Shown here piece by piece: positions 13,075-38,730 of a stretch of DNA of 64,000 bases. The notes under the pieces were generated by a model. The model was not told the origin of the DNA and ran no database searches. It saw only the letters and a list, made by a program, of their open reading frames with translations. The position numbers and the translations under genes are program-made. How positions within the stretch are numbered: the stretch's first letter is position 1; the number at the start of each line of letters is the position of its first letter. Source of the DNA: an uncultured Candidatus Saccharibacteria bacterium. GTDB taxonomy: Bacteria; Patescibacteriota; Minisyncoccia; Phycocordibacterales; CALRHW01. The stretch is from assembly GCA_964390845.1 (NCBI GenBank), contig CAYMIL010000001.1, forward strand, positions 178,448 through 242,447, written 5' to 3'.

Positions 13075-13075
13075 A

Positions 13076-15386: not shown

Positions 15387-15428
15387 ATATGGCTAAGAAT
15401 ATCATTGATTCGTGTCGTGCAGAATATA

Positions 15429-15459
15429 TTGACTTTTCATTAAAATATGATATTATTAT
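15429..15459 (+). promoter_or_regulatory. Putative sigma70 promoter plus strong Shine-Dalgarno (AGGAGG, 6 nt before the ATG) for GC-rich cassette A
   Basis: TTGACT (15429-15434) followed by an AT-rich spacer and TATTAT-like -10. AGGAGG at 15508-15513. Confidence 0.5.
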
Positions 15460-15519
15460 ATTACTACCTTGAGGTGATCCTCTCGGTATGTTCTTTTACT
15501 TCATTCTAGGAGGTGGTCC

Positions 15520-16506
15520 ATGACCACGCAACAGATTGCTGGCGCCGTGCGCGTCAAGACGATCGTGATTCAGCACGCTCCCCGGCTCGACAGCCTTGGA
15601 GCCCTCTTCCTCATCCAGCGCACGCGCGCTGGTGAGAAGGCGTTCCCTGGTTGCAAGGATGCCACTATCGAGTTCTGGGGAACCGGAACTGCCAGTGGTG
15701 GCAAGAAGCGCTGGCAGGAGAACCTCAAGGAGGGTGTTCTCATGCTCGGCGTCGGCGGAAGTCCGTTTGACGAGCATCCGAGCGCCGAGTTTGGCGACCG
15801 GAAGAAGGAGCAGAAGTCCACGATGAAGCTTGTGGCGGAACACCTTCATCTGGACAAGGATCCGCTCTTCAAGCGCTTGGTGGACAACGTCACCAAGAAC
15901 GACCTCGAGGGCGCCCAAGGACCTCTGGACCTGAGCAACATCGTGAAAGCGATGCACAGGTCTGGTGGCAACAACCCTGAGAACGTCATCGGGTTTGCAT
16001 TCGAGGCGTTTGACGCCCTGCTCGGCGAGCAGCATCAGTTTCTGCTCGCCTGCAAGGAGGTTGAGTCGGCGGCGTGGCGCAGGACAATCACCTGCGGAAA
16101 TCGGAAGCTCGACATCGAGCTCATCTGCTCAGACAACACCCTCGTCGCCAGAGCAGCAAGGCACCTCAACAACCGCCTTGCGGTCCTGATTCAGGTGCGC
16201 GCGAGTGGGAGAACTCAGATTCTCACCAACGCCAAGTGCGGTCTCTGCATGAGCAAGGTCGCCTCGGCACTGCGTCGCGCCGAACTCACCAAGATGGGGA
16301 TGCCCTCGTCTGAGATCGAGAAGATCGGCGAGCGCATGAGCGCTCCAGGGCAGCTCAAGGAGATTCCGACCTGGTGTTATCAGATGCCAGGAGAGAACCT
16401 CCTGAACGGCTCCGAGACCGCTCGAGACGTCGAGCCGACCCACCTCAAGGTGGAAGAAGTCTTCGAGATCATCTGCGCGAACATCATGTTCAAGCAGAAG
16501 GATTGA
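15520..16506 (+). CDS. GC-rich cassette A: MYG1/UPF0160-family metal-dependent hydrolase-like protein (328 aa)
   Basis: QHAPRLDSLGALFLIQR and LGVGGSPFDEH resemble the MYG1 signature blocks (THNGTFHCDEALACALL / VDVGGEYD..HRYDHH). GC content and codon usage are clearly higher than in the flanking genes. Confidence 0.55.
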   Translation: MTTQQIAGAVRVKTIVIQHAPRLDSLGALFLIQRTRAGEKAFPGCKDATIEFWGTGTASGGKKRWQENLKEGVLMLGVGGSPFDEHPSAEFGDRKKEQKSTMKLVAEHLHLDKDPLFKRLVDNVTKNDLEGAQGPLDLSNIVKAMHRSGGNNPENVIGFAFEAFDALLGEQHQFLLACKEVESAAWRRTITCGNRKLDIELICSDNTLVARAARHLNNRLAVLIQVRASGRTQILTNAKCGLCMSKVASALRRAELTKMGMPSSEIEKIGERMSAPGQLKEIPTWCYQMPGENLLNGSETARDVEPTHLKVEEVFEIICANIMFKQKD

Positions 16507-16533
16507 GAAGGTCACTCCAACAGAATGAAGAAC

Positions 16534-16562
16534 GGCCCCCGTATGTATGGGGGCCTTTCTTT
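16534..16562 (+). terminator. Intrinsic terminator of cassette A
   Basis: GGCCCCCgtatgtatGGGGGCC followed by tttcttttt. It abuts the rnc stop codon on the opposite strand. Confidence 0.8.
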
Positions 16563-17255
16563 TTACCAACCTTTCTTTTGAAGTGCTTTGCGAGCCGCCT
16601 CTTGTTCGGCGTCTTGCTTTGAATCACCCTCGCCAGACGCAACGAGCTCTTTACCAAGATACACACCGACAGTAAATCGTTTGTCGTGGTCGGGGCCAGT
16701 TTCTTTTGTTGTTTTATACGACGGCGTAACACCCTCTACTTCTTGTGCTTTTTCTTGAAACAAACTTTTTGAGTCAATCCATGAGCCCTTTGAGATGATG
16801 TCATCTGCAAGTGGAGTAAAGTTTTTATATATAAACGCACGAGCAGTCTCGTATCCTTGATCGCGGTACATCGCTCCGATAATAGCCTCGAGCGTGTTTG
16901 CCAAAATATATTGGCGAGCACGACCCACGTCCTTTGTCTCTCCTTTTGAAAGAAGCAAGAAGTCGTTGACCGACAGCGCGCTTGCAACTTGTGCGCACGT
17001 CGTTGCATTTACAAGCGCCGAGCGAATACTTGTCATGTGACCTTCACTTTTGTCAGGGTATGTTTCGTACAAATAATCTGTAATCACAAGCTCAAGCACC
17101 GCATCTCCAAGAAACTCAAGGCGTTCGTTGTGCTCAAGACCAGAATCTTTGTTTTCATTAATATATGAACGATGAACAAACGCTTGCTTCAGCAAACTTT
17201 TATCACGAAATACAACACCGGATGTTGCTTCAAATTGTGAGAAATCAATAGACAT
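16563..17255 (-). CDS. rnc: Ribonuclease III
   Basis: RNase III signature ERLEFLGDAVLEL plus a C-terminal dsRBD. Confidence 0.93.
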   Translation of the reverse strand: MSIDFSQFEATSGVVFRDKSLLKQAFVHRSYINENKDSGLEHNERLEFLGDAVLELVITDYLYETYPDKSEGHMTSIRSALVNATTCAQVASALSVNDFLLLSKGETKDVGRARQYILANTLEAIIGAMYRDQGYETARAFIYKNFTPLADDIISKGSWIDSKSLFQEKAQEVEGVTPSYKTTKETGPDHDKRFTVGVYLGKELVASGEGDSKQDAEQEAARKALQKKGW

Positions 17256-17257
17256 AC

Positions 17258-18172
17258 TTATGAGCGAACCTTTTCTGTTGATCCAAGCAATGCGTTGATT
17301 GCCTTGGTTACGATTGGCAGAATATCATTATAAAAATTGAGGTCAAGAATATCAGCGAGCTTAAACCATCGCACATCGTCGAGGCCACCACTTTCTTTGA
17401 GAGTAATATCTTGGAACGGGGATTCGGCGAGATAATAATTTACTTCTTTTTTAATTTTTCCTTTTTCTGGATCAAAGGCAATGTACCCATTGCTACCGAG
17501 ATTTTGCCCCACGGTAACATCAAGCCCAAGCTCTTCTTTAATAACCCGAGCAACACCCGGAACATCTTCTTCTGTTTCCTCAAGATGACCCTTTGAAAGC
17601 GTCCAGTGTCCAAAGACATCGTGCACAAGCGCGAGGTATACGTCTTCCCCTTGTCGCGCATATACTACCGCGCCGGCAAGCCTCTCCTTTGGAGCTTGAT
17701 CATCTGGAATATCTGGATGGCGCTTTCGCTTTGATGTTTCCTCTTTTCCGGGCTCACCCATTTCTTTGTAGACTGCGCCAAGTACGCCGTTTACAAACTT
17801 ACCGCTCGTCTCGCCACCAAATGTTTTTGCAAGCTCAATCGCCTCATTGATAGCCACCTTTGGAGGAACTTCTTTTCTATCAGCAAACAACAGCTCATAG
17901 AGCCCGATGCGCAAAATATTTCGGTCAACAATAGATATTTTTTCTATAGGCCAGTCTGGAGCCGCTTTTTCAATAATGGTATCGAGGTCCCGTTGCTTTG
18001 CGAGCACATTCTTCATGAGCGATTCCATAAACGAAAAATCGCCCATACCAGGAGCGAATTCCGCAACATTGCGAGCAAATACCTCCATAGCATCAGCTGA
18101 GCTCTTTTTGTTGAAATCCCACTCAAAGAGCGACTGCATGACTATTGATCTGGATAAGTGCCTGTTTGCCAT
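17258..18172 (-). CDS. nusB: NusB antitermination factor fused to a C-terminal Nudix hydrolase domain
   Basis: The N-terminal ~140 aa are NusB-like (MANRHLSRSIVMQSLFEWDF...). The C-terminus carries a Nudix-box-like GHLEETEEDVPGVARVIKEELGL. Confidence 0.8.
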   Translation of the reverse strand: MANRHLSRSIVMQSLFEWDFNKKSSADAMEVFARNVAEFAPGMGDFSFMESLMKNVLAKQRDLDTIIEKAAPDWPIEKISIVDRNILRIGLYELLFADRKEVPPKVAINEAIELAKTFGGETSGKFVNGVLGAVYKEMGEPGKEETSKRKRHPDIPDDQAPKERLAGAVVYARQGEDVYLALVHDVFGHWTLSKGHLEETEEDVPGVARVIKEELGLDVTVGQNLGSNGYIAFDPEKGKIKKEVNYYLAESPFQDITLKESGGLDDVRWFKLADILDLNFYNDILPIVTKAINALLGSTEKVRS

Positions 18173-18222
18173 TGTCGTATATTGTATGTTGAGAACGTAC
18201 TACCCTACCCCACACTCACCAC

Positions 18223-18438
18223 TTACTTACTTGCTGTCTTCTTTTTGCTTTTCTTAGTTGCTTTCGCGACTGTATCAACTACAGTCTTGCCTTTGTATGT
18301 GCCACATTTTGCACACATTCGATGACTCATGCGAGGCGCACCGCACTGAGAGCACTTTGAAAGCGCGCCCATCTTGATTGCATGATGAGATCGGCGGTTT
18401 CCCGTATGGGATCGTGTGTGACGCATTCGTACTACCAT
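18223..18438 (-). CDS. rpmF: 50S ribosomal protein L32
   Basis: 71 aa, MVVRMRHTRSHTGNRRSHHA...CSQCG...CAKCG, with zinc-ribbon cysteines. The upstream extension of the ORF in the track is a GC-rich read-through artefact. Confidence 0.88.
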   Translation of the reverse strand: MVVRMRHTRSHTGNRRSHHAIKMGALSKCSQCGAPRMSHRMCAKCGTYKGKTVVDTVAKATKKSKKKTASK

Positions 18439-18485
18439 ATACGCAGGATTATATACAATTATGGAAAAAAGGCAACTTTTTACTA

Positions 18486-18522
18486 CAAAAAAATCCGCCG
18501 GACACGCTACAGCGCGCCCGGC
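18486..18522 (-). terminator. Intrinsic terminator of cassette B (minus strand)
   Basis: GCCGG-N16-CCGGC hairpin followed on the minus strand by ATTTTTTTG. Confidence 0.6.
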
Positions 18523-18541
18523 AGAAGGAGAGATTGACTCT

Positions 18542-19174
18542 CTACTTGAAGGTCTTGAGGGTCTTGGGGCAAAACCGCTTCCACTCCTCTCGACGTGAGT
18601 TGGCGAGAGGAAACGCCGACTGAACCTCGCGGGTGCCAGCAAACGAAAGCTTCTCGTCGGAGTGCCCGCACGCGACGATGATGCGCCCCTCTTTCGACAT
18701 GGACACATCAGCGAACGAACCGTCGACAGACACCGATCCGATGCACAGCGTAGTCGTGTCTTGGGTATCCAAGGAACGCCTAGGCAACTTGAAGTGCTTG
18801 GCATCCATGGCGACAACGCCGTACAGCAGAAGCGCCTCAAGCAGAGTGCACCCGCACACCTGCTGTTCGTTGAGCTCTCGCGCGCTCACGGGACAAATGT
18901 CTGGCCCAGGACTGCGCTTAAACGAAACCCTGTACGGACCATCACGCTCGGGGTGGCGGTGGTGCTCCATGTGCTGGTCGAAGCCAGCAAAGCACCACAC
19001 GGGCGCCATGCCGAGCGTTCGCAGACCCAGGTGCACCAGCTCCGAGCTGACACCTGGGCACACGTAGACATTCCACTGATCTTCTTCGTCTTCGATGAAC
19101 AGGTTGGGGACAAACATCACGCCCATTGCTTGGTACAACTTCTGCCACAGGCACAAGTAATGACCGGGCAACAT
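18542..19174 (-). CDS. GC-rich cassette B: hypothetical protein with His/Asp-rich motifs; possible metal-dependent hydrolase
   Basis: A coherent 211-228 aa ORF in a ~60% GC segment. A GGAGGTGA Shine-Dalgarno sits before the internal ATG (MLPGHY...). Motifs HMEHHRHPERDG and VACGHSDE. Confidence 0.5.
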   Translation of the reverse strand: MLPGHYLCLWQKLYQAMGVMFVPNLFIEDEEDQWNVYVCPGVSSELVHLGLRTLGMAPVWCFAGFDQHMEHHRHPERDGPYRVSFKRSPGPDICPVSARELNEQQVCGCTLLEALLLYGVVAMDAKHFKLPRRSLDTQDTTTLCIGSVSVDGSFADVSMSKEGRIIVACGHSDEKLSFAGTREVQSAFPLANSRREEWKRFCPKTLKTFK

Positions 19175-19272
19175 TATCACCTCCATCCATAGGGTGGCCC
19201 TAGCGGGCGGAATGGTTGTCTGCGACACGCGTCACAGTTCCAGATAAATTCTGCCACAAAAAGAAAAAACAA

Positions 19273-19878
19273 TCAAATAATGCGTTTGATGAAACTTCGT
19301 CGATGTATGTTGCAAGGGCCATGTCGCCTAATCTGTTGAATATGAGACGCGGTACCGTATCCTTTATGGGCATCAAAACCAAACAACGGATACTTGATTG
19401 CCAGACGCTCCATATATGTATCCCGATGTACCTTTGCAAGAATAGAAGCGAGGCCAATAACAGGCTCTTGTTCGTCGCCACGAATAATTGTCTTTTGCCG
19501 AAGAAAGGATGCTGGTGCACGCAAACCACCATCAAGCAAGACCACACATTCATCTGGTGCAATATTAAGTTTTCGGAGTATAGTACGTAGCGAACGTCCC
19601 ATTGCGTGTGCAATAGCCCTATTGATACCGATACGATCAATCACCGAAGGGCTCACAGAAGAAACTGCATACGCGCACGTCTGCTGTGCACGCGCAAGTC
19701 CCTTGAGTTTATTTTTCCAAACACGACGCTTTTGTGCAGAAAGCTGTTTTGAATCACGAATACCCTCAAAAAAGGAAGGGTTGATGTCTCGAGATACGCA
19801 GACAGCGCCCACAGTAACAGGGCCAGCAAGTGGCCCCCTTCCCACCTCATCAATTCCAATAATGTAGCGGTAGCTCAT
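19273..19878 (-). CDS. rnhB: Ribonuclease HII
   Basis: IIGIDEVGRGPLAGPV... RNase HII N-terminal catalytic motif (DEDD). Confidence 0.92.
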   Translation of the reverse strand: MSYRYIIGIDEVGRGPLAGPVTVGAVCVSRDINPSFFEGIRDSKQLSAQKRRVWKNKLKGLARAQQTCAYAVSSVSPSVIDRIGINRAIAHAMGRSLRTILRKLNIAPDECVVLLDGGLRAPASFLRQKTIIRGDEQEPVIGLASILAKVHRDTYMERLAIKYPLFGFDAHKGYGTASHIQQIRRHGPCNIHRRSFIKRII

Positions 19879-19913
19879 GGCTCTTTGCTATAATTTTATC
19901 ACACCCCATTTCT

Positions 19914-23120: not shown

Positions 23121-23130
23121 AAACAAAAGT

Positions 23131-23170
23131 AAAAAAGAGAAGCCCCGCGCGACGGCTGTCGCGCGGGGCT
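23131..23170 (-). terminator. Intrinsic terminator of cassette C; also sits 3' of dnaE
   Basis: GCCCCGCGCGACggctGTCGCGCGGGGC, with a T-run on the minus strand. Confidence 0.8.
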
Positions 23171-23178
23171 AGGAAACC

Positions 23179-23925
23179 TTACCTGAAGTACTTGTGCCAA
23201 GGCTCATCAGGGACCAGTCCCATTTCAATAAGAGTATGACAGCTCCGGTGAAAGTGAGTGCCGTCTCTGATGGAGTACAAATGAATCCACCCCTTCTTGT
23301 TCGAGTCCTTCTCCTCTATGACCTCCTGTTGAATCCTTTTGAGCTGCTGGGCACGTATGCGCAGGAAGACAGACGCCGCCACACGGAGCTCTTCGGCGTT
23401 CACGCCCTGAAGAACAGCTGACAAGTCGCGACCCGGAATCATCTCAATCGAACAGAACTCTCGGAAGAGCCTGTCGAAGAGGCTGCGCGCCCAAGACTTC
23501 TTTGCGATGATGGCCTCAAGCTCCGTTATTCTCGCTCGCGCACGAATGATGCGACGAGGAAAATAGATGAAGACCGCAGAAACCAAGACCACCAAGGAGA
23601 CCAGTGCTATCACCCCGCAGAACTGATTGATGCGCGTAGAACCAAACCCAAGGAAGTAGCAGAATCCGCACGTGGTAAAGACCACGACGCTGGTAGCGAA
23701 CACGCAGAAGGAGTACCACATGTACAGATGGATACCCGCCATGCGCATGCTCTTCTCCAGCTCCAGATCCGACCACGCGGACTTCCGGAGAGTTTCAACC
23801 TCGATGCCGTGTTTCTTGGCATACAAACCAAGGAGGGGCGAACCCTCAATGACCGAGTTTTCAATCTGAATGTGCATGGAACCATTCCTTTCAGAGAACT
23901 CAATGGGGATTTCGGGTCCCGTCAC
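23179..23925 (-). CDS. GC-rich cassette C: hypothetical membrane protein (soluble N-domain, 2 TM helices, C-terminal cytoplasmic domain), GTG start
   Basis: 248 aa in a high-GC segment. TTGACA-N17-TATTGT promoter in the upstream spacer. Hydrophobic stretches YMWYSFCVFATSVVVF and FCGVIALVSLVVLVSAVFIYF. Confidence 0.55.
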   Translation of the reverse strand: MTGPEIPIEFSERNGSMHIQIENSVIEGSPLLGLYAKKHGIEVETLRKSAWSDLELEKSMRMAGIHLYMWYSFCVFATSVVVFTTCGFCYFLGFGSTRINQFCGVIALVSLVVLVSAVFIYFPRRIIRARARITELEAIIAKKSWARSLFDRLFREFCSIEMIPGRDLSAVLQGVNAEELRVAASVFLRIRAQQLKRIQQEVIEEKDSNKKGWIHLYSIRDGTHFHRSCHTLIEMGLVPDEPWHKYFR

Positions 23926-24020
23926 ACCATCCTGTTTCGACAGGAGGCCGACACTTCATTGATTCCATGCAAACAATATCACTAAAATACTGGTATGTCA
24001 ACTATCACGCACAACCTCTT

Positions 24021-24929: not shown

Positions 24930-24990
24930 GCCATTATTTTACCACAGATAGATATGGAAATAATGGCCCCAAACTGCTATTATCAGACGC

Positions 24991-26730
24991 ATGAACATAG
25001 AACATATACGACATTCCCTTGCCCACGTACTCGCTCGCGCGGTACGCACCCATTTCCCTGACGCTCGTCCAACCCTTGGCCCCGCTGTCGATAATGGCTT
25101 CTATTATGATTTTGAGTGCCCAACGCCGATTTCTGAAAAAGACCTCCCTCGACTTGAGAAGGAGATGCGTAAAATTCTCAAGAGCTGGAAAAGTTTTGAA
25201 GGCACTGAAGTATCTGCCGACGAAGCTCGTAAGATGTTTGCAGACAATCCATACAAACTTGAGCTTATTGATGAAATCATAAACAAGGGAGAAGCAATCA
25301 CTCTCTATACTTCGGGAGATTTTACGGATTTGTGTCGTGGTGGTCATGTAGAAAACCCATCTCAAGATATCGACCCCGACGCATTTACACTCGACCGCAT
25401 CGCGGGCGCATATTGGCGTGGCGATGAAAACAACGCGATGCTTACTCGCATCTACGGACTTGCGTTTGGCACAAAAGAAGAACTCGACGCATACGTAACC
25501 CAGCGCGAAGAAGCAAAAAAGCGCGATCACAAAAAAATCGGAAAAGAAATGGGGCTCTTTACCTTTTCAGAACTTGTTGGCGCAGGCCTTCCTTTGTGGA
25601 CACCAAAAGGCACAATCATGCGTGAACTTCTCAATGATTTTGTGTGGGAACTTCGTCGTGCAAAAGGTTACCAAAAAGTGGCGATTCCACATATCACAAA
25701 AAAGGCACTCTACGAAACATCTGGACACTGGAGCAAATATGCTGACGAACTCTTCAAAATAGAAACCCGAGAAAAACATTTGTATGCGATGAAGCCGATG
25801 AACTGCCCTCATCACACACAGATTTTTGATAGCGCCCCAAAAAGCTACCGAGACATGCCCCAGCGATACTGCGAGACAACCATGGTATACCGCGATGAGC
25901 AGTCTGGTGAGCTTTCTGGCCTTTCACGCGTACTCTCTATCACTCAAGATGACGCCCATGTCTTCTGTCGCGTCAATCAAGTAGAAGAAGAAATCTTCAG
26001 CGTCTGGGATATTATCGACCAATTCTACGGCGCGTTTGGTTTCAAGGACGTCCGTGTCCGCATCTCAAAACACGACCCAGCACATCCTGAAAAATATCTT
26101 GGTACACCCGATATATGGGCAACAGCGGAAGAACAGCTCACACGCCTCGTAGAAAAGCGCGGTGTCAAAAACTGGATAGATGGCGTTGGTGAAGCCGCTA
26201 TTTACGGACCGAAAATTGATTTTATCGCAAAGGATTCTATTGGCCGATCGCTACAGGTAGCAACAATTCAGCTCGACTACAACATGCCGAGAAACTTTGC
26301 TTTGGAGTGCACCAATGAAAAAGGAGAAAAAGAACCGGTGGTCATGATTCATTGCGCGATCATGGGTTCTATCGAGCGATTCATGTCCACCCTCATCGAG
26401 CATTACGCCGGCAATTTCCCCCTATGGCTTCACCCAACTCAGGTAAAGGTTATTCCTATCGGTGAGACTCATATTGCACATGCGCGAGAGATACACGACG
26501 CACTCGTTTCAACCGGTGTCCGCGCAGAGCTCGCAGACGACAGTGAGAATTTCGGTAAGAAAATCCGCTCAGGAAAGGTGGACAAGATACCTTACATGAT
26601 TATCGTCGGCGATAAAGAAGTTGAATCACACACATTCACACTCGAAAGCAGAGACTCTGGCAACCTTGGAGCAATGAGCGCACCAGACATACTCGCGCGT
26701 ATTACCCACGAAATCTCCGAAAAGAAATAA
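24991..26730 (+). CDS. thrS: Threonyl-tRNA synthetase lacking the N-terminal TGS domain but retaining the editing domain
   Basis: 579 aa. HxxxH editing motif near the N-terminus; class II core; C-terminal anticodon-binding domain. Confidence 0.92.
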   Translation: MNIEHIRHSLAHVLARAVRTHFPDARPTLGPAVDNGFYYDFECPTPISEKDLPRLEKEMRKILKSWKSFEGTEVSADEARKMFADNPYKLELIDEIINKGEAITLYTSGDFTDLCRGGHVENPSQDIDPDAFTLDRIAGAYWRGDENNAMLTRIYGLAFGTKEELDAYVTQREEAKKRDHKKIGKEMGLFTFSELVGAGLPLWTPKGTIMRELLNDFVWELRRAKGYQKVAIPHITKKALYETSGHWSKYADELFKIETREKHLYAMKPMNCPHHTQIFDSAPKSYRDMPQRYCETTMVYRDEQSGELSGLSRVLSITQDDAHVFCRVNQVEEEIFSVWDIIDQFYGAFGFKDVRVRISKHDPAHPEKYLGTPDIWATAEEQLTRLVEKRGVKNWIDGVGEAAIYGPKIDFIAKDSIGRSLQVATIQLDYNMPRNFALECTNEKGEKEPVVMIHCAIMGSIERFMSTLIEHYAGNFPLWLHPTQVKVIPIGETHIAHAREIHDALVSTGVRAELADDSENFGKKIRSGKVDKIPYMIIVGDKEVESHTFTLESRDSGNLGAMSAPDILARITHEISEKK

Positions 26731-26733
26731 GCG

Positions 26734-27483: not shown

Positions 27484-27495
27484 AAATATACAGGG

Positions 27496-27822: not shown

Positions 27823-27853
27823 ACTTGTACGCATGCACGCACTATACATTAAA

Positions 27854-27868
27854 TGCAAACGACTTGCA
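27854..27868. promoter_or_regulatory. Palindrome TGCAA-N5-TTGCA in the zur / yibEF-like divergent intergenic region; candidate Fur-family operator
   Basis: Perfect 5-5-5 inverted repeat. A TATACT -10-like hexamer lies 7 nt before the yibEF ATG. Confidence 0.3.
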
Positions 27869-27905
27869 AATAGAAATATCACGCTGGTACTGCTATACTG
27901 TCCTC

Positions 27906-29069
27906 ATGAAGAAATATATCGCTCTCGCATGCGCGTGTGTTGTTGGTTTGTCTGTGTCCGCAACGCCCCTACATGCACAGGAACTTATTCAGGATACAGT
28001 TGCGATTGTAAAAGCGCGCGTGCTTTCTGTAGAGCACGAAGAACGTCGTACTGTCCCCGGCACTGATCTTGAAAGTACATTTCAAACGTTACACGTAGAG
28101 ATACGTGAGGGCGCACAGCAAGGTAAGACCATAACACTTGAAAACGACTATGTGCCACTACGCGCCGGAGAAACTTTTTTTCTCCGCACAACAGTGCACG
28201 GATTTGATGGAAGTGCTTCATATTCTGTCGCAGACCCCAATCGACTCCCTCCCCTCATCTTCTTTACCTGTCTATTTGTCCTCCTTGTCTTTGTATTCGG
28301 AGGCATCCAAGGTATCCGCGGACTCGCAAGTCTCGCTGGTAGCTTGGTCTTGATTTTATATGTACTGCTCCCAGGCATCCTCCAAGGACACTCACCAATT
28401 CTTGTGAGTCTCGGCGTATCGTCGCTCATTATTATTCTAGGCTCATATATCACTCACGGCTTCAACAAAACGACAACCTCCGCCGTTGTCGGCATGATTG
28501 GCACTGTTGTTATTACGGGAGCGCTTGCGTATTGGGCCGTACACTGGGCACGCCTCAGTGGTTTCAGCGACGAAGAAGCAATGTATCTCAACTTTGACAC
28601 GCGTGGCTCAATAGATTTCATCGGGCTACTTCTCGGTGGCATGCTTATCGGCTTGCTTGGCGTACTCTACGATGTAGCAATCGGGCAAGCAATTTCTGTT
28701 GAAGAGCTACATCATGTGGCGCCACACTTACCACGAAAAACAATCTTCACACGCGCTGTACGTATCGGACGTGAGCATATTGGCGCACTTGTAAACACAC
28801 TTGCGATTGCATATGTAGGTGTTTCACTTCCACTTCTTCTGCTCTATGTACACTCTTCAAACACATCCGTGTTTATCACAATGAATCGAGAAATATTTGC
28901 CACAGAAATTATTCGCACCATGGTCGGAAGTATCGGCCTTGTGGTAGCTGTTCCGATTACTACATATATCGCGGTGCTTATGCTTATGAAGAAGGCCGCG
29001 CCTGTAGATGACGCGACCATCAAAAAGGAAACGGAGGCACTAACGCACGCACACGTGCATCACCACTAA
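27906..29069 (+). CDS. YibE/F-family integral membrane protein
   Basis: Signal peptide, an extracellular N-domain and multiple TM helices. His-rich C-terminus (HAHVHHH). Confidence 0.6.
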   Translation: MKKYIALACACVVGLSVSATPLHAQELIQDTVAIVKARVLSVEHEERRTVPGTDLESTFQTLHVEIREGAQQGKTITLENDYVPLRAGETFFLRTTVHGFDGSASYSVADPNRLPPLIFFTCLFVLLVFVFGGIQGIRGLASLAGSLVLILYVLLPGILQGHSPILVSLGVSSLIIILGSYITHGFNKTTTSAVVGMIGTVVITGALAYWAVHWARLSGFSDEEAMYLNFDTRGSIDFIGLLLGGMLIGLLGVLYDVAIGQAISVEELHHVAPHLPRKTIFTRAVRIGREHIGALVNTLAIAYVGVSLPLLLLYVHSSNTSVFITMNREIFATEIIRTMVGSIGLVVAVPITTYIAVLMLMKKAAPVDDATIKKETEALTHAHVHHH

Positions 29070-29070
29070 C

Positions 29071-31749: not shown

Positions 31750-31826
31750 ATATCTTATAGACGTTATAGCACAGCGGTATAATACAACACATCTAATACC
31801 ACTGTCTACATGTGTAAAAAAACGAC

Positions 31827-32636
31827 CTACTCAGCACTATCCTTTGCAGAAAGGGCTGATACAACAACACTCATTGGCGCAAACGTACTTCCCTGACCAA
31901 ACACATCATCCATCGTATCAAAACCCACAATCTGTCCTGACAAACTCACAAGTGGAGCGCCTGGAGTTGGGTCTTTCGATGGAATATCTGTCTCTATTAC
32001 CGTAAGAGATCCCGACGACCCTTGTATAGATACATCTCGACGCAATGCAGTCACTCGCCCCACCGCAACAGTGTCACGTTCCGCGCCAGTGATAGCAATG
32101 ACCGTCTGCCCGAGTTGAAGCGTATCAGAATTTCCAAACACCGCAGGGACAAGAGTCTTCTTTTCTTCATCGGGTATACCATCTTTTAGACGAAACAGTA
32201 CGAGTCCTGAGCGCACTCCCGCAAAAGCAACTGGGTAATCCTTGCCATTTGAAAGAAGGGCGCTGTATTCGACATTTCTACTATAACTTTTCATTCCCGT
32301 AACAATGAGCCCGTCTGCACCTACTACAAGGCCGAGGCTCGCCACCGCCGCACCCGCATGGATACGAGCGACACTCTTTGAATTTTTACTAATCGCGTCG
32401 ACCACAAGGTCTTCTTCCTTCACGACAACTGTCGTTTCTTTTGTAATTGTTTGTGTGTTATCTGATGACGGAGTCACCTTTTCTATAGTCCGCTCAACAA
32501 CGCGATTAATCGTCTGCGAAACAACCTGTGGCGCCTCATTAAGCAACGAAAATGTGATGATTCCTGTCCCAATAGATGTAACGAAGCTGACGAGCAAACA
32601 CAGAAGAACGATTTGTGTTTTTGTGAGATCCTCCAT
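31827..32636 (-). CDS. Membrane-anchored trypsin-like (HtrA/S1C-like) domain protein with the catalytic triad apparently lost
   Basis: S1C-like blocks are present, but the GNSGG motif reads PTPGAPL, the His block reads TGMKSY and the Asp block is replaced. There is an N-terminal TM helix. Confidence 0.6.
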   Translation of the reverse strand: MEDLTKTQIVLLCLLVSFVTSIGTGIITFSLLNEAPQVVSQTINRVVERTIEKVTPSSDNTQTITKETTVVVKEEDLVVDAISKNSKSVARIHAGAAVASLGLVVGADGLIVTGMKSYSRNVEYSALLSNGKDYPVAFAGVRSGLVLFRLKDGIPDEEKKTLVPAVFGNSDTLQLGQTVIAITGAERDTVAVGRVTALRRDVSIQGSSGSLTVIETDIPSKDPTPGAPLVSLSGQIVGFDTMDDVFGQGSTFAPMSVVVSALSAKDSAE

Positions 32637-32692
32637 TGCCCTTCATCATAGAAAAAAGGAGCCACTTTTGCAAACAATACTTTTTTTATATA

Positions 32693-33178
32693 ATGAAACC
32701 CATGTTTCTTTCTCCGCAAAACATCGCAATCTACGTAGCAGGCGCTCTTATCATCGTGCTTATCATTATTATTATTCGACTCGAGAAACGCCTCAACAAC
32801 ATACTTGGCGGAACACACGCAACATCGATCGAAGAAGGGATGAAGGTGCTACGCGAAGAACTCAAGGCAATGCAAACCTTTTCCGAACGTGCGAGCGCCC
32901 ACTTCCAAAATATCGAGAAGCGCCTTCGCAATAGTATTCAGCACGTCGAGACTGTGCGCTTCAACCCATTCAAAGGAACTGGTGCTGGAGGCAACCAAAG
33001 TTTCTCTACCTCATTCACCAACGAACACGGTGACGGCGTTGTCATTTCAACCCTACACTCTCGCGAGCGAATCAGTGTCTTTTCCAAGCCCCTCAAGGGA
33101 TTTAGTTCAGAATTTGAGCTATCCGACGAAGAAAAAGAGGTTGTTGGCCGAGCAAAGCAAGACACTCGGCACAAGTAA
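32693..33178 (+). CDS. Hypothetical membrane protein (DUF4446-like?); start uncertain (alternative 32636)
   Basis: N-terminal TM helix (IAIYVAGALIIVLIIIIIRL), then RFNPFKGTGAGGNQSFS...VVIS. Confidence 0.5.
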   Translation: MKPMFLSPQNIAIYVAGALIIVLIIIIIRLEKRLNNILGGTHATSIEEGMKVLREELKAMQTFSERASAHFQNIEKRLRNSIQHVETVRFNPFKGTGAGGNQSFSTSFTNEHGDGVVISTLHSRERISVFSKPLKGFSSEFELSDEEKEVVGRAKQDTRHK

Positions 33179-33250
33179 CCATTCGCTCTGTTTTGTGCTA
33201 TACTGCCCCGTTATACAGGGCGCACTCCCGCGTTTGTAGAGAAAACATCT

Positions 33251-34804
33251 ATGGGGAAGAAAACTACACAATCTCACAGCAACACCCAGACCGTATCGGT
33301 ACGTCCGCCGGTTATTGCTGTTATGGGACACATTGACCATGGAAAATCGTCCCTACTCGACTATATCCGGAAGTCAAATATCACCGCACACGAAGCGGGT
33401 GGTATTACCCAACATGTATCGGCATACGAGGTAGAACACACAGGACAAGATGGCATACAACACGCGATCACCTTTCTTGATACACCAGGCCACGAAGCAT
33501 TTCAGGCGTTGCGTATGCGAGGTGTAAAAATTGCCGACATTGCTATTCTTGTTGTTTCGGCGGAAGACGGCGTCAAACCACAAACACTCCACGCACTCTC
33601 ATGCATTAAAGAAGCTGGTATTCCCTACATCGTTGCCATCAACAAAATCGACAAACCAAGCGCCGACATCGATCGAACAAAACAGAGTCTTGCGGAACAT
33701 GAAATCTTTATCGAAGGTTATGGCGGAGACATTCCTTCGGTACCGATTTCAGCAAAAACAGGAGACGGAGTGAGTGACCTCCTCGACATGATGCTCCTTG
33801 TTGCTGAAATGCAAGAACTACGCGCACTCCATGACATACCCGCAGAAGGTATTGTGCTCGAAAGCAACCTTGATTCAAAAAAAGGTATCACTGCGACCCT
33901 CATTATTCGCAACGGAACCCTCTCGCAAGGTATGTATGTCGTCGCCGGCGAAAGCATGGCACCTGTGCGTATCATGGAAAACTTTTTAGGCAAAGCGATC
34001 AAAACCGCTACATTCTCAAGCCCGGTGCGCATCATCGGTTGGGACACCCTACCGACTGTTGGCGCACCGTTTATCACCTTTGCTGGACGCAAGGAAGCAG
34101 AAGCGTACGTACAAGAGGTCCGCGAACGCGCCCTTGAAGCAGCGCGAAAGAAGGCCCTACAAAAACAACACACACAAGGCACATCTCAAGAACGTGTCGT
34201 TGTTCCTCTTATTATCAAAGCAGATGCTGGTGGTAGCCTCGAAGCTCTTCTCCAGAAAATCGAACAATTACACAACGAACAAGTTGTCTTTTCTGTTATT
34301 CAAAGTGGTATTGGTGCAGTTTCAGAAAGTGATGTAAAACTTGCAACCGGCAATGAATCTGCGCTCGTCATCGGTTTTCACACCACAGCAGACCCGCGTG
34401 CAGAAAGCCTCGCACTACGATCAGGTATCACTATTCACTCCTTCAATATCATCTACAAACTCCTCGAGTGGCTCGAGACAGTCCTTCAGGAGCGCAAACC
34501 ACACGTAAGCGTTGAGGAATCCCTTGGCGTGGCCCGCATCCTTAAATTGTTCAGTGAAGCAAAAGGAAAACAAGTAATTGGTGCGAAAGTTGAAAAAGGA
34601 ATTATTGCCGTCGGCACACAGGTAAAAATCTTACGTCGAGATACTGAGATCGGCACAGGAAAAGTACGCGGTATGCAGGTATTCAAAGAGAAAGCGAACG
34701 AAGTTGAAGAAGGTGCTGAATTTGGCGCAATGATTGAAACAAAAATCGAGCTCGCCGTTGGAGATCGACTCGAATCTGTGCGCATTGTAGAAAAACAAAT
34801 ATGA
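33251..34804 (+). CDS. infB: Translation initiation factor IF-2 (short form, G domain onward)
   Basis: GHIDHGKSSLLD G1 motif, DTPGHEAF and NKID. Confidence 0.95.
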   Translation: MGKKTTQSHSNTQTVSVRPPVIAVMGHIDHGKSSLLDYIRKSNITAHEAGGITQHVSAYEVEHTGQDGIQHAITFLDTPGHEAFQALRMRGVKIADIAILVVSAEDGVKPQTLHALSCIKEAGIPYIVAINKIDKPSADIDRTKQSLAEHEIFIEGYGGDIPSVPISAKTGDGVSDLLDMMLLVAEMQELRALHDIPAEGIVLESNLDSKKGITATLIIRNGTLSQGMYVVAGESMAPVRIMENFLGKAIKTATFSSPVRIIGWDTLPTVGAPFITFAGRKEAEAYVQEVRERALEAARKKALQKQHTQGTSQERVVVPLIIKADAGGSLEALLQKIEQLHNEQVVFSVIQSGIGAVSESDVKLATGNESALVIGFHTTADPRAESLALRSGITIHSFNIIYKLLEWLETVLQERKPHVSVEESLGVARILKLFSEAKGKQVIGAKVEKGIIAVGTQVKILRRDTEIGTGKVRGMQVFKEKANEVEEGAEFGAMIETKIELAVGDRLESVRIVEKQI

Positions 34805-35151
34805 GTATCCGAGAAGAAAAAGTAAGAGAACACCTACGCCACCTAGCGGCAGAATTCCTCCAGCATGAAGCGGGACCTTCTTCGCTTATTACCGTTACCA
34901 ACGCAACCTTCAACGAACACAACAATCTTTCCACCATCTTTTTCACAACGCTTCCGGCAGACAGAGAACGTGCCGCGCTTGAATTTGCAAAACGAAAGCG
35001 TCGAGAGTTTCGAGACTATGTAAAATCTAAAACACGTATTCGAGCGCTTCCATTCTTCGACTTCGCAATAGACACTGGTGAAAAAAACCGCCAGCGCATC
35101 GACGAAATTGGTTCGCTCGATAGTGAATTGCGGGGCGACGAACAGGTGTAA
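34801..35151 (+). CDS. rbfA: Ribosome-binding factor A
   Basis: 116 aa with a KH-like RbfA fold signature, directly downstream of infB with a 4-nt overlap. Confidence 0.85.
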   Translation: MSIREEKVREHLRHLAAEFLQHEAGPSSLITVTNATFNEHNNLSTIFFTTLPADRERAALEFAKRKRREFRDYVKSKTRIRALPFFDFAIDTGEKNRQRIDEIGSLDSELRGDEQV

Positions 35152-35190
35152 GATGTGGTATAACAGAAAGGCGTCAGATAGACGCACTAT

Positions 35191-35264
35191 GGCGTAGTGG
35201 CGAAGTTGGTTAACGCGGCGGTCTGCAAAACCGCTATGCGCCGGTTCAATTCCGGCCTACGCCT
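35191..35264 (+). tRNA. tRNA-Cys (GCA)
   Basis: Cloverleaf folded by hand: acceptor GGCGTAG/CTACGCC, anticodon loop cuGCAaa, T-loop TTCAATT. Confidence 0.85.
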
Positions 35265-35306
35265 CAAAGATTCCCTCAAGAAAAAAACGTGATACAGTAT
35301 CACTAA

Positions 35307-35391
35307 GCCCGGGTGATGAAATTGGTAGACATAGTCGACTTAAAATCGGCGGCCGAAAGGCATGCGGGTTCGATTCCCGCCCTGGGCACCA
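35307..35391 (+). tRNA. tRNA-Leu (TAA), type II, with encoded CCA
   Basis: Acceptor GCCCGGG/CCTGGGC, anticodon loop cuUAAaa, long variable arm and T-loop TTCGATT. Confidence 0.85.
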
Positions 35392-35404
35392 CAATACTCC
35401 ATAT

Positions 35405-35432
35405 TTGACATTTCTTTAAAATGTGCTAATAT
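35405..35432 (+). promoter_or_regulatory. Near-consensus sigma70 promoter for cassette D (TTGACA-N16-TAATAT)
   Basis: tTTGACAtttctttaaaatgtgcTAATAT. A GAAAGGGA Shine-Dalgarno lies 6 nt before the ATG at 35491. Confidence 0.55.
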
Positions 35433-35490
35433 GGGTTCTAGTCACATACCGAATAAACGACTGACGCTCCTTTCACGAAAGGGACTACCG

Positions 35491-35898
35491 ATGAGTATCT
35501 CACGTGTGCAAGAACTGTTCAGACGGCTTTTGAAGCGGTCTGAACCAGAGTGGCCGCAGCTCGTCGCAGAGAAGGACGAGATGAAACGCCAACTCGACGA
35601 GTACACACGGAAGTACCGCAACAGCCAACTTCCGTACCGCGATCGAGCGCACGCCGCAGAGGCATACGTGCGCGAAGCTCCGAAGCTCGTCCGCCACGCC
35701 GCTACTATGGCGACTGCAGGCGGACGCACCCAGAGTCTCGAGGACTACGATCCTCGCCTCGTCGCCATCATGACAGCTGAACTTGGCTACATCGCCAAGC
35801 ATTTCAAGCGGTACCCCGGGTGCTATGAGGGTGTCGTGGTGATCATCCGGTCGCCACACTTCCCCGAGCGTCTCCAGGGACAGGTCCTGTTCAACTGA
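35491..35898 (+). CDS. GC-rich cassette D: hypothetical soluble protein (136 aa) between tRNA-Leu and tRNA-Lys
   Basis: High GC and GC3 codons. The longer ORF in the track overlaps tRNA-Leu, so the start was set at the first ATG after the promoter. Confidence 0.55.
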   Translation: MSISRVQELFRRLLKRSEPEWPQLVAEKDEMKRQLDEYTRKYRNSQLPYRDRAHAAEAYVREAPKLVRHAATMATAGGRTQSLEDYDPRLVAIMTAELGYIAKHFKRYPGCYEGVVVIIRSPHFPERLQGQVLFN

Positions 35899-35925
35899 AT
35901 CCGTGATGAAGCTATGCATCACACA

Positions 35926-35960
35926 CCCCCGACCGCACCACGTGCGCGGTCGGGGTTTTC
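35926..35960 (+). terminator. Intrinsic terminator of cassette D
   Basis: CCCCCGACCGCaccacgtGCGCGGTCGGGG followed by tttt. Confidence 0.75.
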
Positions 35961-36003
35961 CATTACTATGTTTTATGTTATAAAGATATCTGTCGTTCCT
36001 TTT

Positions 36004-36076
36004 CCGCCTATAGCTCAGTTGGTAGAGCAACCGCCTCTTAAGCGGTGGGTCCCAGGTTCGAATCCTGGTGGGCGGA
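36004..36076 (+). tRNA. tRNA-Lys (CTT)
   Basis: Acceptor CCGCCTA/TGGGCGG, D-arm GCTCAGTTGGTAGAGC, anticodon loop cuCTTaa, T-loop TTCGAAT. Confidence 0.85.
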
Positions 36077-36103
36077 CTCGGTGTCGTGCGCACACATACA
36101 TAC

Positions 36104-36185
36104 GGGCGAGTGGCGTAATTGGTAGCCGCGCTAGTCTTAGGAACTAGTGGAGTAATCCATGGGAGTTCGAGTCTCCCCTCGCCCA
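36104..36185 (+). tRNA. tRNA-Leu (TAG), type II
   Basis: Acceptor GGGCGAG/CTCGCCC, anticodon loop cuTAGga, long variable arm and T-loop TTCGAGT. Confidence 0.85.
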
Positions 36186-36189
36186 CAAC

Positions 36190-36217
36190 TTGACTTTTCT
36201 GTTTTTTTGTGTATAAT
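36190..36217 (+). promoter_or_regulatory. Strong sigma70 promoter for cassette E1, immediately 3' of tRNA-Leu (TTGACT-N16-TATAAT)
   Basis: TTGACTtttctgtttttttgtgTATAAT. Confidence 0.6.
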
Positions 36218-36245
36218 ATTTTTTAGGCTCACAGCTGTGGCCGTA

Positions 36246-37562
36246 ATGATTACGGCTCGGTGTAGAGTCGTTCTTTGGCATCATCGCAACAAGAGAAAGG
36301 TAGCGTGTCTCGTGAAGAAGAAAATCAACTGGATGTTTTGGATCAACTTGTACCTCCTGAGCGGCTGCGTAGCGGTGCTCGGGTGGTACGCCAACCCTCT
36401 GCTGGGAGTGGTGATCATCGTCATTTCCCTCTTCCACCCCGCCATGTACTTGGCGCTGGGCTGGACGGTCCGCAAGATCGCTTCGTGGGAGAAGAAGAAG
36501 TTCTTCATCTTTCCCACTGAGGGACAGATCATTCCCATTGTGAGAGGTGTCTCCAGCGGAACCGACAAAGACCGTGGTGACGCAAGAAGTGACACCAGCA
36601 AAACTGGTGGCGCCCGTAGTGGCGTGTTTGACCACTTCGTGATCTCTATCCGGGGGCACGTCATGGTCGGCAACAAGCTGGTAAAGCTTCCAGACAACGA
36701 GGAAGCACCGCGTAGCTTTTGGAATCTGCACTTCGGTGTGGAATGGATTGGCTTGTGGCAGACGGTCCAGACGTACCACTTCAAGTGGAACACCCTGAAG
36801 TGGAACGCTGAAACCGAAGAGGCCGAGATTTTTCCTCGGGATGAAATTGTGTCTTCGCTGTTTTGGAGGGCGCAATACGCATTCCTGATTGTTGAGGTGG
36901 AGGACAAAAACAACCTCCGCCTCACTCTCAAGGTTCTCGTGAACCTGAGGACGGTCAATCCGTACCAGACGCTGTACGGAACATCTGGCAAGCCAGGCGA
37001 CTGGATTCAAGCGGTCGCCGCCGCGATTACCGCGGTCATCCGAGACTTCGTGGGCAAGGAAAGCTACGAGAGTCTGATCGGGATGCAGACCGAAGGCGAT
37101 AACTCGCCCTTCATCAGGGCAATCAAGACCCTCAACACGAAGTGCCTCAATGGCAACGATAGCCTCGAGGACTTGTACGGCCAGGTCATCGACAGCGCCA
37201 ACATGATCTCGGTCGAGCTTTCGGACGAGGACATGCGTGAGATCACGCAGGAGAAGTACCGGGCCGAGCAGAAGAAGCTCGCGGCAGAGCAGGACGCTGT
37301 ACGGACCATTACCCTCGGCACCGCTGAGGCAACGGTTCGACAGAAGAACCTCGAGGCAGAAGCCGCTGGCAAGAAGGCCATGCTTAAAGCCGAAGCTGCT
37401 GGCACGAAGGCTGTACTTGAGGCAACTGCGGCAGGCTACGAGAAGATCGGAACCGCTGCAGATGGCAAGGGTGCCAGCATGTTCGCTGCTTCGAAACTGA
37501 GTGAAACCAAGGGCACCCTTGTCTTGGACAAGGACACCATTGGTCTCAACCTGAACCAGTAA
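36246..37562 (+). CDS. GC-rich cassette E1: SPFH/band-7 (flotillin-like) membrane protein
   Basis: N-terminal TM region; SPFH core; C-terminal AEQKKLAAEQ...EAEAAGKKAMLKAEAAGTKAVLEATAAG flotillin-type EA repeats. The start is 36246, with an alternative ATG at 36333. The 5' part of the ORF in the track overlaps the tRNA. Confidence 0.7.
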   Translation: MITARCRVVLWHHRNKRKVACLVKKKINWMFWINLYLLSGCVAVLGWYANPLLGVVIIVISLFHPAMYLALGWTVRKIASWEKKKFFIFPTEGQIIPIVRGVSSGTDKDRGDARSDTSKTGGARSGVFDHFVISIRGHVMVGNKLVKLPDNEEAPRSFWNLHFGVEWIGLWQTVQTYHFKWNTLKWNAETEEAEIFPRDEIVSSLFWRAQYAFLIVEVEDKNNLRLTLKVLVNLRTVNPYQTLYGTSGKPGDWIQAVAAAITAVIRDFVGKESYESLIGMQTEGDNSPFIRAIKTLNTKCLNGNDSLEDLYGQVIDSANMISVELSDEDMREITQEKYRAEQKKLAAEQDAVRTITLGTAEATVRQKNLEAEAAGKKAMLKAEAAGTKAVLEATAAGYEKIGTAADGKGASMFAASKLSETKGTLVLDKDTIGLNLNQ

Positions 37563-37597
37563 CCCTTCGACCTCTCTCTGCGATGGTGCGCCCACAA

Positions 37598-37625
37598 GCC
37601 AGTATTCCACGGACGGAATACTGGC
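37598..37625 (+). terminator. Hairpin terminator of E1 abutting the E2 promoter
   Basis: GCCAGTATTCCacggacGGAATACTGGC followed by TTGACTTTT. Confidence 0.6.
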
Positions 37626-37654
37626 TTGACTTTTATATAAAAACGTGATAGTAT
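37626..37654 (+). promoter_or_regulatory. sigma70 promoter for E2 (TTGACT-N17-TAGTAT); an AAGGAG Shine-Dalgarno lies 6 nt before the GTG start
   Basis: TTGACTtttatataaaaacgtgaTAGTAT. AAGGAG at 37715-37720. Confidence 0.55.
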
Positions 37655-37726
37655 TATACAGGTAGGCTTGCTCTTTCACATATCACTCACACCCAATCCC
37701 CCTTCCGGGGGCACAAGGAGAACACT

Positions 37727-38701: not shown

Positions 38702-38730
38702 GCGGCGTGGGACTTGTCCCACGCCGCTTT
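38702..38730 (+). terminator. Intrinsic terminator of E2
   Basis: GCGGCGTGGGActtgTCCCACGCCGC followed by tttcgttttc. Confidence 0.75.

Follow-up and report, generated by a model that had tools for sequence, protein, structure and literature searches.

We analysed a 64,000-nucleotide (nt) stretch of contig CAYMIL010000001.1 (positions 178,448 to 242,447; hereafter, the window), which carries a series of short GC-rich gene cassettes lying between housekeeping genes. The native gene set is typical of a candidate phyla radiation bacterium and includes rpoB, rpoC, dnaG, rnr, smc, rnc, a NusB-NUDIX fusion gene, rpmF, rnhB and dnaE, together with thrS, clpB, infB, rbfA, gyrA, ftsA, ftsZ and an array of type IV secretion system (T4SS)-pilin genes. 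The host is an ultra-small bacterium of Paceibacterota, within the candidate phyla radiation; Rnc is at most 83% identical in the nearest public genomes, which are labelled Candidatus Paceibacterota, Parcubacteria or Zambryskibacteria. The background GC of the window is ~0.46-0.47, and GC-rich islands stand out at 15.5-16.55, 18.5-19.15, 23.3-23.85 and 35.5-38.75 kb. The original prediction, made from the sequence of this region, had described six cassettes (A, B, C, D, E1 and E2) in the range that it covered. Two further ones, F and G, lie outside that range, and the window thus holds at least eight.

The cassettes share one predicted layout, i.e., a sigma-70 promoter with -35 and -10 boxes, a leader bearing a hairpin, usually a Shine-Dalgarno (SD) sequence, an open reading frame (ORF) rich in GC at third codon positions (GC3), and an intrinsic terminator. 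The -10 box is TG-extended in six of the seven complete cassettes and lies 58-95 nt before the start codon. The leaders are 55-95 nt long, each with a short GC-rich hairpin, and the ORFs end in a hairpin and a T run. Consensus scans and direct reading both place a single ORF between its own predicted promoter and its own predicted terminator in A to F. Being a complete transcription unit, each gene should be expressible independently of the housekeeping operon or tRNA cluster that it interrupts.

Cassette A, between smc and rnc on the plus strand, has a promoter (15429-15456; -35 TTGACT, 16-nt spacer, TG-extended -10 TATTAT), a leader (15463-15519) with a small hairpin (GAGG-TGAT-CCTC) and the SD sequence AGGAGG (15508-15513; duplex -14.7 kcal/mol), an ORF of 328 amino acids (aa; 15520-16506; GC3 0.78) with a predicted DHH/DHHA1-like phosphoesterase fold, and a terminator (16534-16562) that abuts the rnc stop codon. 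Cassette B is on the minus strand between rnhB and rpmF. The -35 box of its promoter (19248-19276; TTGATT, 17-nt spacer, TGG-CAGAAT) overlaps the rnhB stop codon, its ORF (18542-19174; 210 aa; GC3 0.74) is preceded by the SD sequence GGAGGTG (19184-19178; duplex -13.6 kcal/mol), and its terminator is at 18494-18525. Cassette C, also on the minus strand, comprises a promoter (23973-24001; TTGACA, 17-nt spacer, TGA-TATTGT), an ORF for a putative membrane protein with two transmembrane (TM) segments (23179-23877; 232 aa, or 248 aa if it starts at GTG 23925; GC3 0.69), and a terminator (23141-23170) whose bidirectional hairpin also comes immediately after dnaE.

Cassette D splits a conserved native tRNA cluster on the plus strand, whose first half is tRNA-Cys(gca) and tRNA-Leu(taa) (35191-35391) and whose second half is tRNA-Lys(ctt) and tRNA-Leu(tag) (36004-36186). 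Its promoter (35405-35432; TTGACA, 16-nt spacer, TGC-TAATAT) leads to an ORF of 135 aa (35491-35898; GC3 0.70) with an uncertain start (35431 in the public call), and its terminator hairpin was read from the sequence at 35926-35962. The E1 promoter (36190-36217; TTGACT, 16-nt spacer, TATAAT) begins 4 nt past tRNA-Leu and precedes an ORF of ~418 aa for a putative SPFH/Band-7-like membrane protein (36306-37562; GC3 0.73). The 3' arm of the E1 terminator hairpin (37595-37628) overlaps the -35 box of the E2 promoter (37626-37654; TTGACT, 17-nt spacer, TGA-TAGTAT), which is followed by an SD sequence (AAGGAG, 37715-37720; duplex -8.6 kcal/mol), an ORF with a GTG start for a putative multi-TM protein (37727-38683; 318 aa; GC3 0.74), and a terminator (38702-38727), all on the plus strand. 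On the minus strand, cassette F has a promoter (48585-48613; TTGACA, 17-nt spacer, TGC-CATTAT), an ORF of 186 aa assigned to no family (47947-48507; SD AAGGAGGAA, -11.8 kcal/mol; GC3 0.58), and a bidirectional hairpin between it and the preceding native gene that was read as its terminator (47912-47945). Cassette G, on the minus strand, is cut by the window end; the 3' part of its ORF (63621-64000; GC3 0.75) is followed by a terminator hairpin (~63566-63598) that also lies directly downstream of an hsp20-like gene.

The GC-richness noted in the original prediction is real and resides almost wholly at codon position 3, with GC1 and GC2 like those of native genes. The cassettes have a GC of 0.53-0.60 compared with ~0.46 in the surrounding genes, and GC3 is 0.69-0.78 in A to E2, 0.58 in F and 0.75 in G compared with 0.37-0.48 (~0.43) in 27 native genes. 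The codon dialect differs accordingly: AAG accounts for 0.89 of lysine codons in the cassettes and 0.42 in native genes, CTG for 0.29 and 0.04 of leucine codons, and A-ending codons for 0.10 and 0.26. The boundaries of the GC3 shift are sharp at the ORF ends, and a gradient into the flanking core genes is absent. Codon optimisation for high expression is disfavoured, given that ribosomal-protein genes, tuf and rpoBC show no GC3 shift and that native genes avoid CTG. GC-rich relatives were also considered as donors and rejected; the best correlation of relative synonymous codon usage was 0.73, and none was as extreme as the cassettes.

The concentration of the GC excess at codon position 3 fixes the strand and frame of the cassette ORFs. 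Long antisense ORFs lie within the GC3-rich cassettes (36144-37679, 15496-16035 and 16129-16569, all on the minus strand), and public assemblies annotate such ORFs over the true genes (483 aa over E1; 128 and 179 aa over A). Gene calling is thereby affected, as public callers pick the antisense ORF in cassettes.

Native genes of the window begin in another way. An SD-like duplex is absent in 46 of 47 of them, and native transcription units mostly start with TGnTAnnnT 6-12 nt before the ATG (for example, thrS at 24991, a yibE-like gene at 27906, gyrA at 45535 on the minus strand, and ftsA at 52288). A -10 box so close to the start codon indicates leaderless mRNA for native first genes, and leaderless mRNA appears, judging from these predicted starts, to be the main mode in this organism. 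In the 80 related Paceibacterota genomes used for comparison (L-numbers below denote loci or contigs of relatives), only 2 of 221 core-gene starts had an SD sequence, irrespective of GC bin. A leaderless-type -10 box preceded 84% of dnaE starts and 68% of smc starts, compared with 21-29% of the starts of operon-internal genes. The fetched loci were searched for a 16S 3' end carrying the anti-SD sequence, and none was present. In the literature, we found no paper describing leaderless mRNA as the main mode in Patescibacteria, and no description of a dichotomy between leadered, SD-bearing and leaderless genes.

According to the original prediction, the cassettes have in common an expression architecture not seen in native genes of the window, and this part stands for the -35/-10 promoter, the long leader, the SD sequence and the terminator. 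TTGAC[AT] with a proper -10 box was found in 6 of 7 cassettes and 3 of 32 native transcription-unit starts (Fisher p = 1.7e-4), an SD duplex of -7.5 kcal/mol or stronger in 5 of 7 cassettes and 1 of 47 native genes (Fisher p = 3.8e-5), and a leader of at least 55 nt in 7 of 7 cassettes and 7 of 30 native genes (Fisher p = 3e-4). The promoters are not near-identical, since their similarity is limited to the consensus sigma-70 hexamers, nor are they host-like, given that host genes are mostly leaderless and lack an SD sequence. A strong SD sequence had been claimed throughout; it is present in A, B, E2 and F, moderate in C, and weak in D and E1. Among the three GTG starts proposed (B, C and E2), that of E2 was retained. 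We place the B start at ATG 19174, behind GGAGGTG (the public gene call is ATG 19186), and C is ambiguous between GTG 23925 and ATG 23877, the ATG being taken by one public gene call.

All of the motifs quoted in the original prediction are present in the sequence, which had led to the suggestion that an extended -35 element marks the GC-rich genes as a co-regulated or commonly derived set. Such a regulon, perhaps read by a dedicated sigma factor or activator, would account for the fact that TTGACTTTT occurs exactly three times in the window (15429, 36190 and 37626), always on the plus strand and directly upstream of a GC-rich ORF, and for cassette promoters being near consensus. However, this 9-mer is found in only three of the eight cassettes, and its count does not exceed chance (3 observed, 1.2 expected; 15 of 100 shuffles reach 3). 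The corresponding element of cassette F is TTGACAAAT (48613-48605, minus strand), beyond the range that the prediction had covered. Leadered genes of the wider clade have two common -35 contexts, TTGACTTTT and the equally common TTGACAAA, irrespective of cargo GC3, and in L092, L096 and L103, TTGACTTTT is found ahead of SPFH genes whose GC3 is normal. Consensus TTGACA promoters are likewise found before rpoB, a tRNA and a native surface-protein gene, and a standard sigma-70 with four regions is the sole sigma factor seen beside the window. The proposed signature is therefore a clade-wide promoter habit and no mark of the GC-rich set. Nor is a placement of the cassettes behind their promoters as one derived set supported, as the -35 box of site A lies in the conserved flank, the E1 promoter is orthologous among distant genomes, and the cargo proteins are mutually unrelated. 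The likeness of the promoters is that of a consensus promoter used in common by the leadered class, partly inherited with the site, and is not cassette-specific; a dedicated regulon is accordingly highly improbable. Several GGA motifs occur in the cassette leaders and may offer a lead on regulation, GGA being a known target of CsrA. In L008 (2352-2588), csrA is itself a GC3-rich cassette (0.61 compared with ~0.43), with a TTGACT promoter that begins right after the terminator of an A-like gene.

Comparison with the relatives showed that the cassettes occupy recurrent sites. The gene order dnaE-rnhB-rpmF-nusB-rnc-smc is kept in the 80 genomes, and no homolog of any window cassette was found within this block in any of them. 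In many of the relatives, rnc and smc, and likewise rnhB and rpmF, are directly adjacent (gaps of 7-170 bp). Overall, rnc and smc are separated by 146 bp or less in 37 of 71 genomes and by 0.28-3.6 kb in 33; for rnhB and rpmF, 21 of 70 genomes have a gap of 172 bp or less, and in the others it reaches up to 2.5 kb. The gaps are filled mostly by singleton ORFs, along with three small families confined to the site between rnhB and rpmF. These two junctions, the position downstream of dnaE, and positions within or after the tRNA cluster are insertion hot spots across the clade, and a family represented in the cassette cargo also occurs between rpsS and rplB in relatives. At these sites, the cassette flanks are conserved core genes, occupancy varies among relatives, and the cargo differs among genomes, including co-existing strains. 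Genomes start to differ immediately 3' of the -35 box or where the ORF begins, and the difference ends at the terminator.

The smc side of site A illustrates how closely these limits follow the expression signals. The 41-42 nt upstream of smc hold its own leaderless-type promoter, and similarity between genomes ends exactly at TTGACT, which keeps this distance to the start of smc in seven of the eight closest relatives, two empty sites included. Past the conserved smc flank and TTGACT, the cargoes of L010/L012, L011, L014 and the window are unrelated. L013 and L016 have the rnc stop codon only 19-21 nt past TTGACT, i.e., the empty site keeps the -35 hexamer. A masked run of N at this junction in L010 (11270-11500), flanked by a duplicated smc-upstream segment, suggests an assembly gap or collapse at the hot spot.

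The tRNA cluster Cys-Leu(taa)-Lys(ctt)-Leu(tag), which follows infB-rbfA, was found conserved in L002, L090, L092, L096, L100, L101 and L103, distant relatives included, and the inserts between and after its tRNA genes vary, including one of 1.7 kb in L101 at the same inter-tRNA position as D and one of 4.9 kb in L103. Beyond the cluster, L092, L096 and L103 also keep the E1 promoter (TTGACTTTTC...) in front of their syntenic SPFH gene. The arrangement of the cluster itself also varies, as it is inverted as a block in L002 (7732-8898), tRNA-Lys alone is inverted in L090 (8680-9336) and L101 (11879-14437), and the cluster of L103 spans 11936-17782.

The family of A occupies several of these sites: in the window it lies between smc and rnc, in L002 it follows the tRNA cluster, and in L004, L005, L007 and L009 it is found between rpsS and rplB. 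Every copy is equipped with a promoter, SD sequence and terminator of its own, and its GC3 is 0.15-0.35 above that of its host. The genes for S19 (rpsS) and L2 (rplB) are normally adjacent. In these four divergent Paceibacterota genomes, the otherwise almost invariant S10 ribosomal-protein operon is interrupted by an A homolog on the opposite strand (L004:10001-11035, L005:9718-10674, L007:10001-10798 and L009:1017-1982). L004 has a tandem pair of A paralogs (9023-9958 next to 10001-11035), one with a normal GC3 (0.44) and one with 0.63; the paralog of normal GC3 is the most divergent member of the family (33-37% identity).

Variation was also detected among strains very close to the one sequenced here. 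Contigs from several independent assemblies are 99.7-100% identical to parts of the window, which indicates that it is no chimera. Between contig L171 and the window, 15.4 kb of native DNA shows 2 differences, whereas a 560-nt part of the A ORF shows 52 (~9%, ~20 amino-acid changes); promoter and leader are identical. A second contig from the same sample as L171 carries the window allele, so both A alleles were present in one sample. Contig L174 matches the window from A to dnaE, but in place of the C ORF it carries an allele of 21% identity that shares its topology and its C-terminal PWxKYF; the sequence on either side is 99.7-100% identical. No variation was seen in D, E1, E2 and F in the available data (1 mismatch in 22 kb). 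Breaks in short-read contigs tend to fall within A and C, as would be seen if foreign GC-rich DNA had been misassembled onto a low-GC genome. We attribute the breaks to the co-existing alleles, and consider such an artefact hardly credible, given that the junctions are identical base for base in at least two ENA and two Logan assemblies of separate sequencing runs, and that promoters and terminators sit exactly against native stop and start codons.

The cargo consists of orphans or of families restricted to Patescibacteria. No cassette protein had a match in Pfam, PHROGs, PADLOC or NCBIfam, except for a sub-threshold SPFH match of E1. A has eight homologs in 5.8e9 proteins, the nearest being at most 48% identical, and no match in Pfam. 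Its AlphaFold2 model (predicted local distance difference test score 87) matched DHH-type enzymes in Foldseek searches, i.e., pAp phosphatase, NrnA, DhhP and family II pyrophosphatase (E = 3e-6 to 1e-3, with low TM-scores), and the invariant D84-E85-H86 is, by our own reading of the alignment, presumably at the position expected for the DHH motif. The model suggests that A may fold as a DHH/DHHA1-like phosphoesterase. B retrieved only itself from the 5.8e9 proteins and is a true orphan. A conserved ORF of ~150 aa between rnhB and rpmF of relatives, first suspected to be YceD, raised the idea that B is a diverged YceD, which was dropped as that ORF is unrelated to B; it has a Nudix-like motif by eye and no match in Pfam. 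E1 scored 21.3 bits against Band_7 (PF01145; cut-off 23.6). It is homologous (2e-12) to the syntenic SPFH protein of L092, which passes PF01145 at 28.5 bits. E1 has 470 homologs, the nearest ~38% identical, and the one named member comes from a Patescibacteria genome. Hydrophobic stretches recognised by eye suggest that C and E2 are small membrane proteins.

An independent promoter-gene-terminator unit inserted between conserved genes has been termed a moron in phages (Hendrix and colleagues; review PMC3594210). The cassettes resemble phage morons in having one gene with its own promoter and terminator, a GC content unlike that of their neighbours, a position between genes that are adjacent in relatives, and a predicted expression independent of the surrounding operon. 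They differ in residing in a cellular chromosome (among housekeeping and tRNA genes, and in the S10 operon of relatives) and not in a prophage, and in a translation start (SD) that departs from that of the host (no SD/leaderless). No phage protein family was found in the cassettes or in the window genes checked.

A dedicated mobile system could be supposed on the basis of this fit to the moron definition, the compact units running head to tail from -35 box to hairpin (the E1 hairpin overlapping the E2 -35 box), and the location of some sites at tRNA genes. The cassettes would then be prophage morons or remnants, or integron-type cassettes moved by an integrase at hairpin attC sites. Like integron cassettes, they are single-ORF modules that end in a hairpin and may stand head to tail (D, E1 and E2). 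However, the window genes scanned against Pfam or annotated with it include no integrase (IntI), transposase or phage gene. The 3' hairpins are terminator-like, with T runs, differing sequences and no shared attC core, and the cassettes have a promoter each, in both orientations and at scattered sites. Phage and viral collections gave no matches (IMG/VR and GenBank phages held no relatives of A or E1), and a search of plasmids with the D-E2 region matched only its tRNAs. An integron or transposon mechanism was thus rejected, and a dedicated mobile system of either kind is very unlikely.

The sites are also reminiscent of chromosomal hot spots of horizontal transfer and of flexible genomic islands ('replacement' or 'additive'), with which they share boundaries set by core genes, content that varies among relatives and strains, very divergent alleles of equivalent genes at the same place, and some positions beside tRNA genes. 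In contrast to such islands, the cassettes are single genes of 0.5-1.4 kb whose boundaries coincide with promoter and terminator, and their cargo has a GC above that of the host. Acquired DNA is usually AT-richer than its host, so accessory DNA of this kind runs counter to the usual rule.

Given the observed sites, boundaries and composition, we lean towards moron-like accessory cassettes that come from a separate gene pool and are exchanged at hot spots bounded by promoter and terminator, and hold this to be somewhat better than an even proposition. The cargo ORFs would be swapped by homologous recombination anchored in the conserved flanks, the resident promoter included, and no dedicated recombinase would be required. 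As the window genes checked include no recombinase, and as no phage, viral or plasmid relatives were found, recombination in the flanks is probably the simplest mechanism. Frequent transfer among Patescibacteria is on record (PMC12455944). The GC3-rich dialect would mark the cargo as a separately evolving pool restricted to Patescibacteria and outside the mutational equilibrium of the host, and the alien codon usage, CTG included, speaks for import from a GC-rich pool.

Several observations weigh against this reading. A donor was not found (nearest homologs at most 48% identical for A, ~38% for E1 and none for B), and the core genes of every sampled relative are less GC3-rich than the cassettes. 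No homolog was closer outside the lineage than inside; there were only distant homologs in a Patescibacteria context or none at all, and the restriction of the families to the phylum counts against import. In distant relatives, E1 keeps both its synteny and its promoter, and the A-family genes between rpsS and rplB of four divergent genomes have a high GC3 despite 37-51% protein identity; both fit long residence better than recent import, and the GC3 excess may be maintained in place or have arisen there. All eight cassettes deviate toward GC, whereas random exchange among relatives, whose GC3 spans 0.19-0.71, would not predict a uniform direction. In favour of the reading, a survey of 85 loci (1.3 Mb) across the clade gave a median GC3 excess of +0.14 for ORFs with a TTGAC[AT] promoter, leader and SD sequence (n = 36) and -0.006 for leaderless-type ORFs (n = 374; Mann-Whitney p = 4e-16, or 7e-14 without the window), though a few families at a single locus account for a large share of the 36, which are not independent data points. 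The association was not reproduced in a second, more distant Paceibacterota set (54 loci; n = 10, median +0.009, p = 0.23) and is thus not phylum-wide. Finally, the promoters, leaders, terminators and leaderless starts throughout are predictions from sequence.

The missing donor, the restriction to the phylum, the uniform direction and the signs of long residence would be accounted for if the cassettes belonged to a long-resident native class of leadered, SD-dependent genes whose GC3 excess was made in place, so that composition would say nothing of a foreign origin. The most plausible cause would be GC-biased gene conversion at often-recombining loci, with selection on mRNA stability or structure as an alternative. 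Consistent with this, the E1/SPFH gene is syntenic with its conserved TTGACTTTT promoter in three relatives, the families are found only in Patescibacteria with no donor, every deviation is toward GC, and recombination is visibly concentrated within the cassette ORFs. The GC3 of the A family is high in seven genomes (native GC3 0.25-0.45) at 37-51% protein identity, where synonymous sites are taken to be saturated. A higher GC3 has been reported for recombining bacterial genes (Lassalle et al. 2015, PMC4450053), and the variable ORFs here are likewise the GC3-rich ones. However, D, E1, E2 and F show no such variation among strains. Close relatives often carry unrelated cargo at a given site, a pattern of gain and loss rather than conversion, and the use of CTG (29% in cassettes and 4% in native genes) argues against codon optimisation for this host. 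To our knowledge, moreover, an excess of +0.15 to +0.35 in GC3 with knife-sharp boundaries at the ORF ends and no gradient into core genes seems well beyond the bacterial cases described, and our impression is that +0.3 is far above the known difference between recombining and non-recombining genes. An origin of the excess in place is possible but, in our judgement, unlikely.

Exchange and an origin in place could also be combined. Each Paceibacterota chromosome would then hold two dialects, a leaderless, SD-less core of low GC3 and a pool of leadered, SD-dependent, GC3-rich single-gene cassettes exchanged without a recombinase. Replacement anchored at promoter and terminator would occur between lineages and strains and reach into the S10 ribosomal-protein operon. 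The extreme GC3 would be created or maintained by exchange itself, through gene conversion of unprecedented strength, or by a distinct translation regime, and would not be inherited from a donor. We regard this combination as rather doubtful.

Three independent expression signals, i.e., promoter type, translation initiation and codon dialect, separate accessory from core genes in an uncultivated bacterium, and could serve as a way to recognise the flexible genome of orphan-rich organisms that are hard to annotate. Allele replacement confined to single ORFs in an otherwise clonal population bears on how genes move among bacteria, as does a site that keeps its promoter while the cargo changes, in bacteria poor in mobile elements. 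Should the GC3 excess have been made in place, the cassettes would offer an unusually clean natural test of recombination-driven GC enrichment in bacteria.

Other features of the window were noted along the way. An intergenic segment of ~330 nt with a GC near 0.53 (48630-48990), between the F promoter and pth, is bracketed by hairpin terminators at 48641-48662 and 48980-49015. It holds no convincing ORF and had no Rfam match even at E <= 1, and a non-coding RNA was rejected on that ground and on folding z-scores of only -1.65 and -1.26. The NusB protein encoded at 17258-18172 on the minus strand is fused to a NUDIX hydrolase domain (PF01029 and PF00293 in the public annotation), and the fusion partner is kept across the 80 relatives, as indicated by tblastn coverage. 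Directly downstream of the E1/E2 site, five small T4SS-pilin/TrbC-like genes stand in tandem on the minus strand (38795-40750), and the same array is present in L002.

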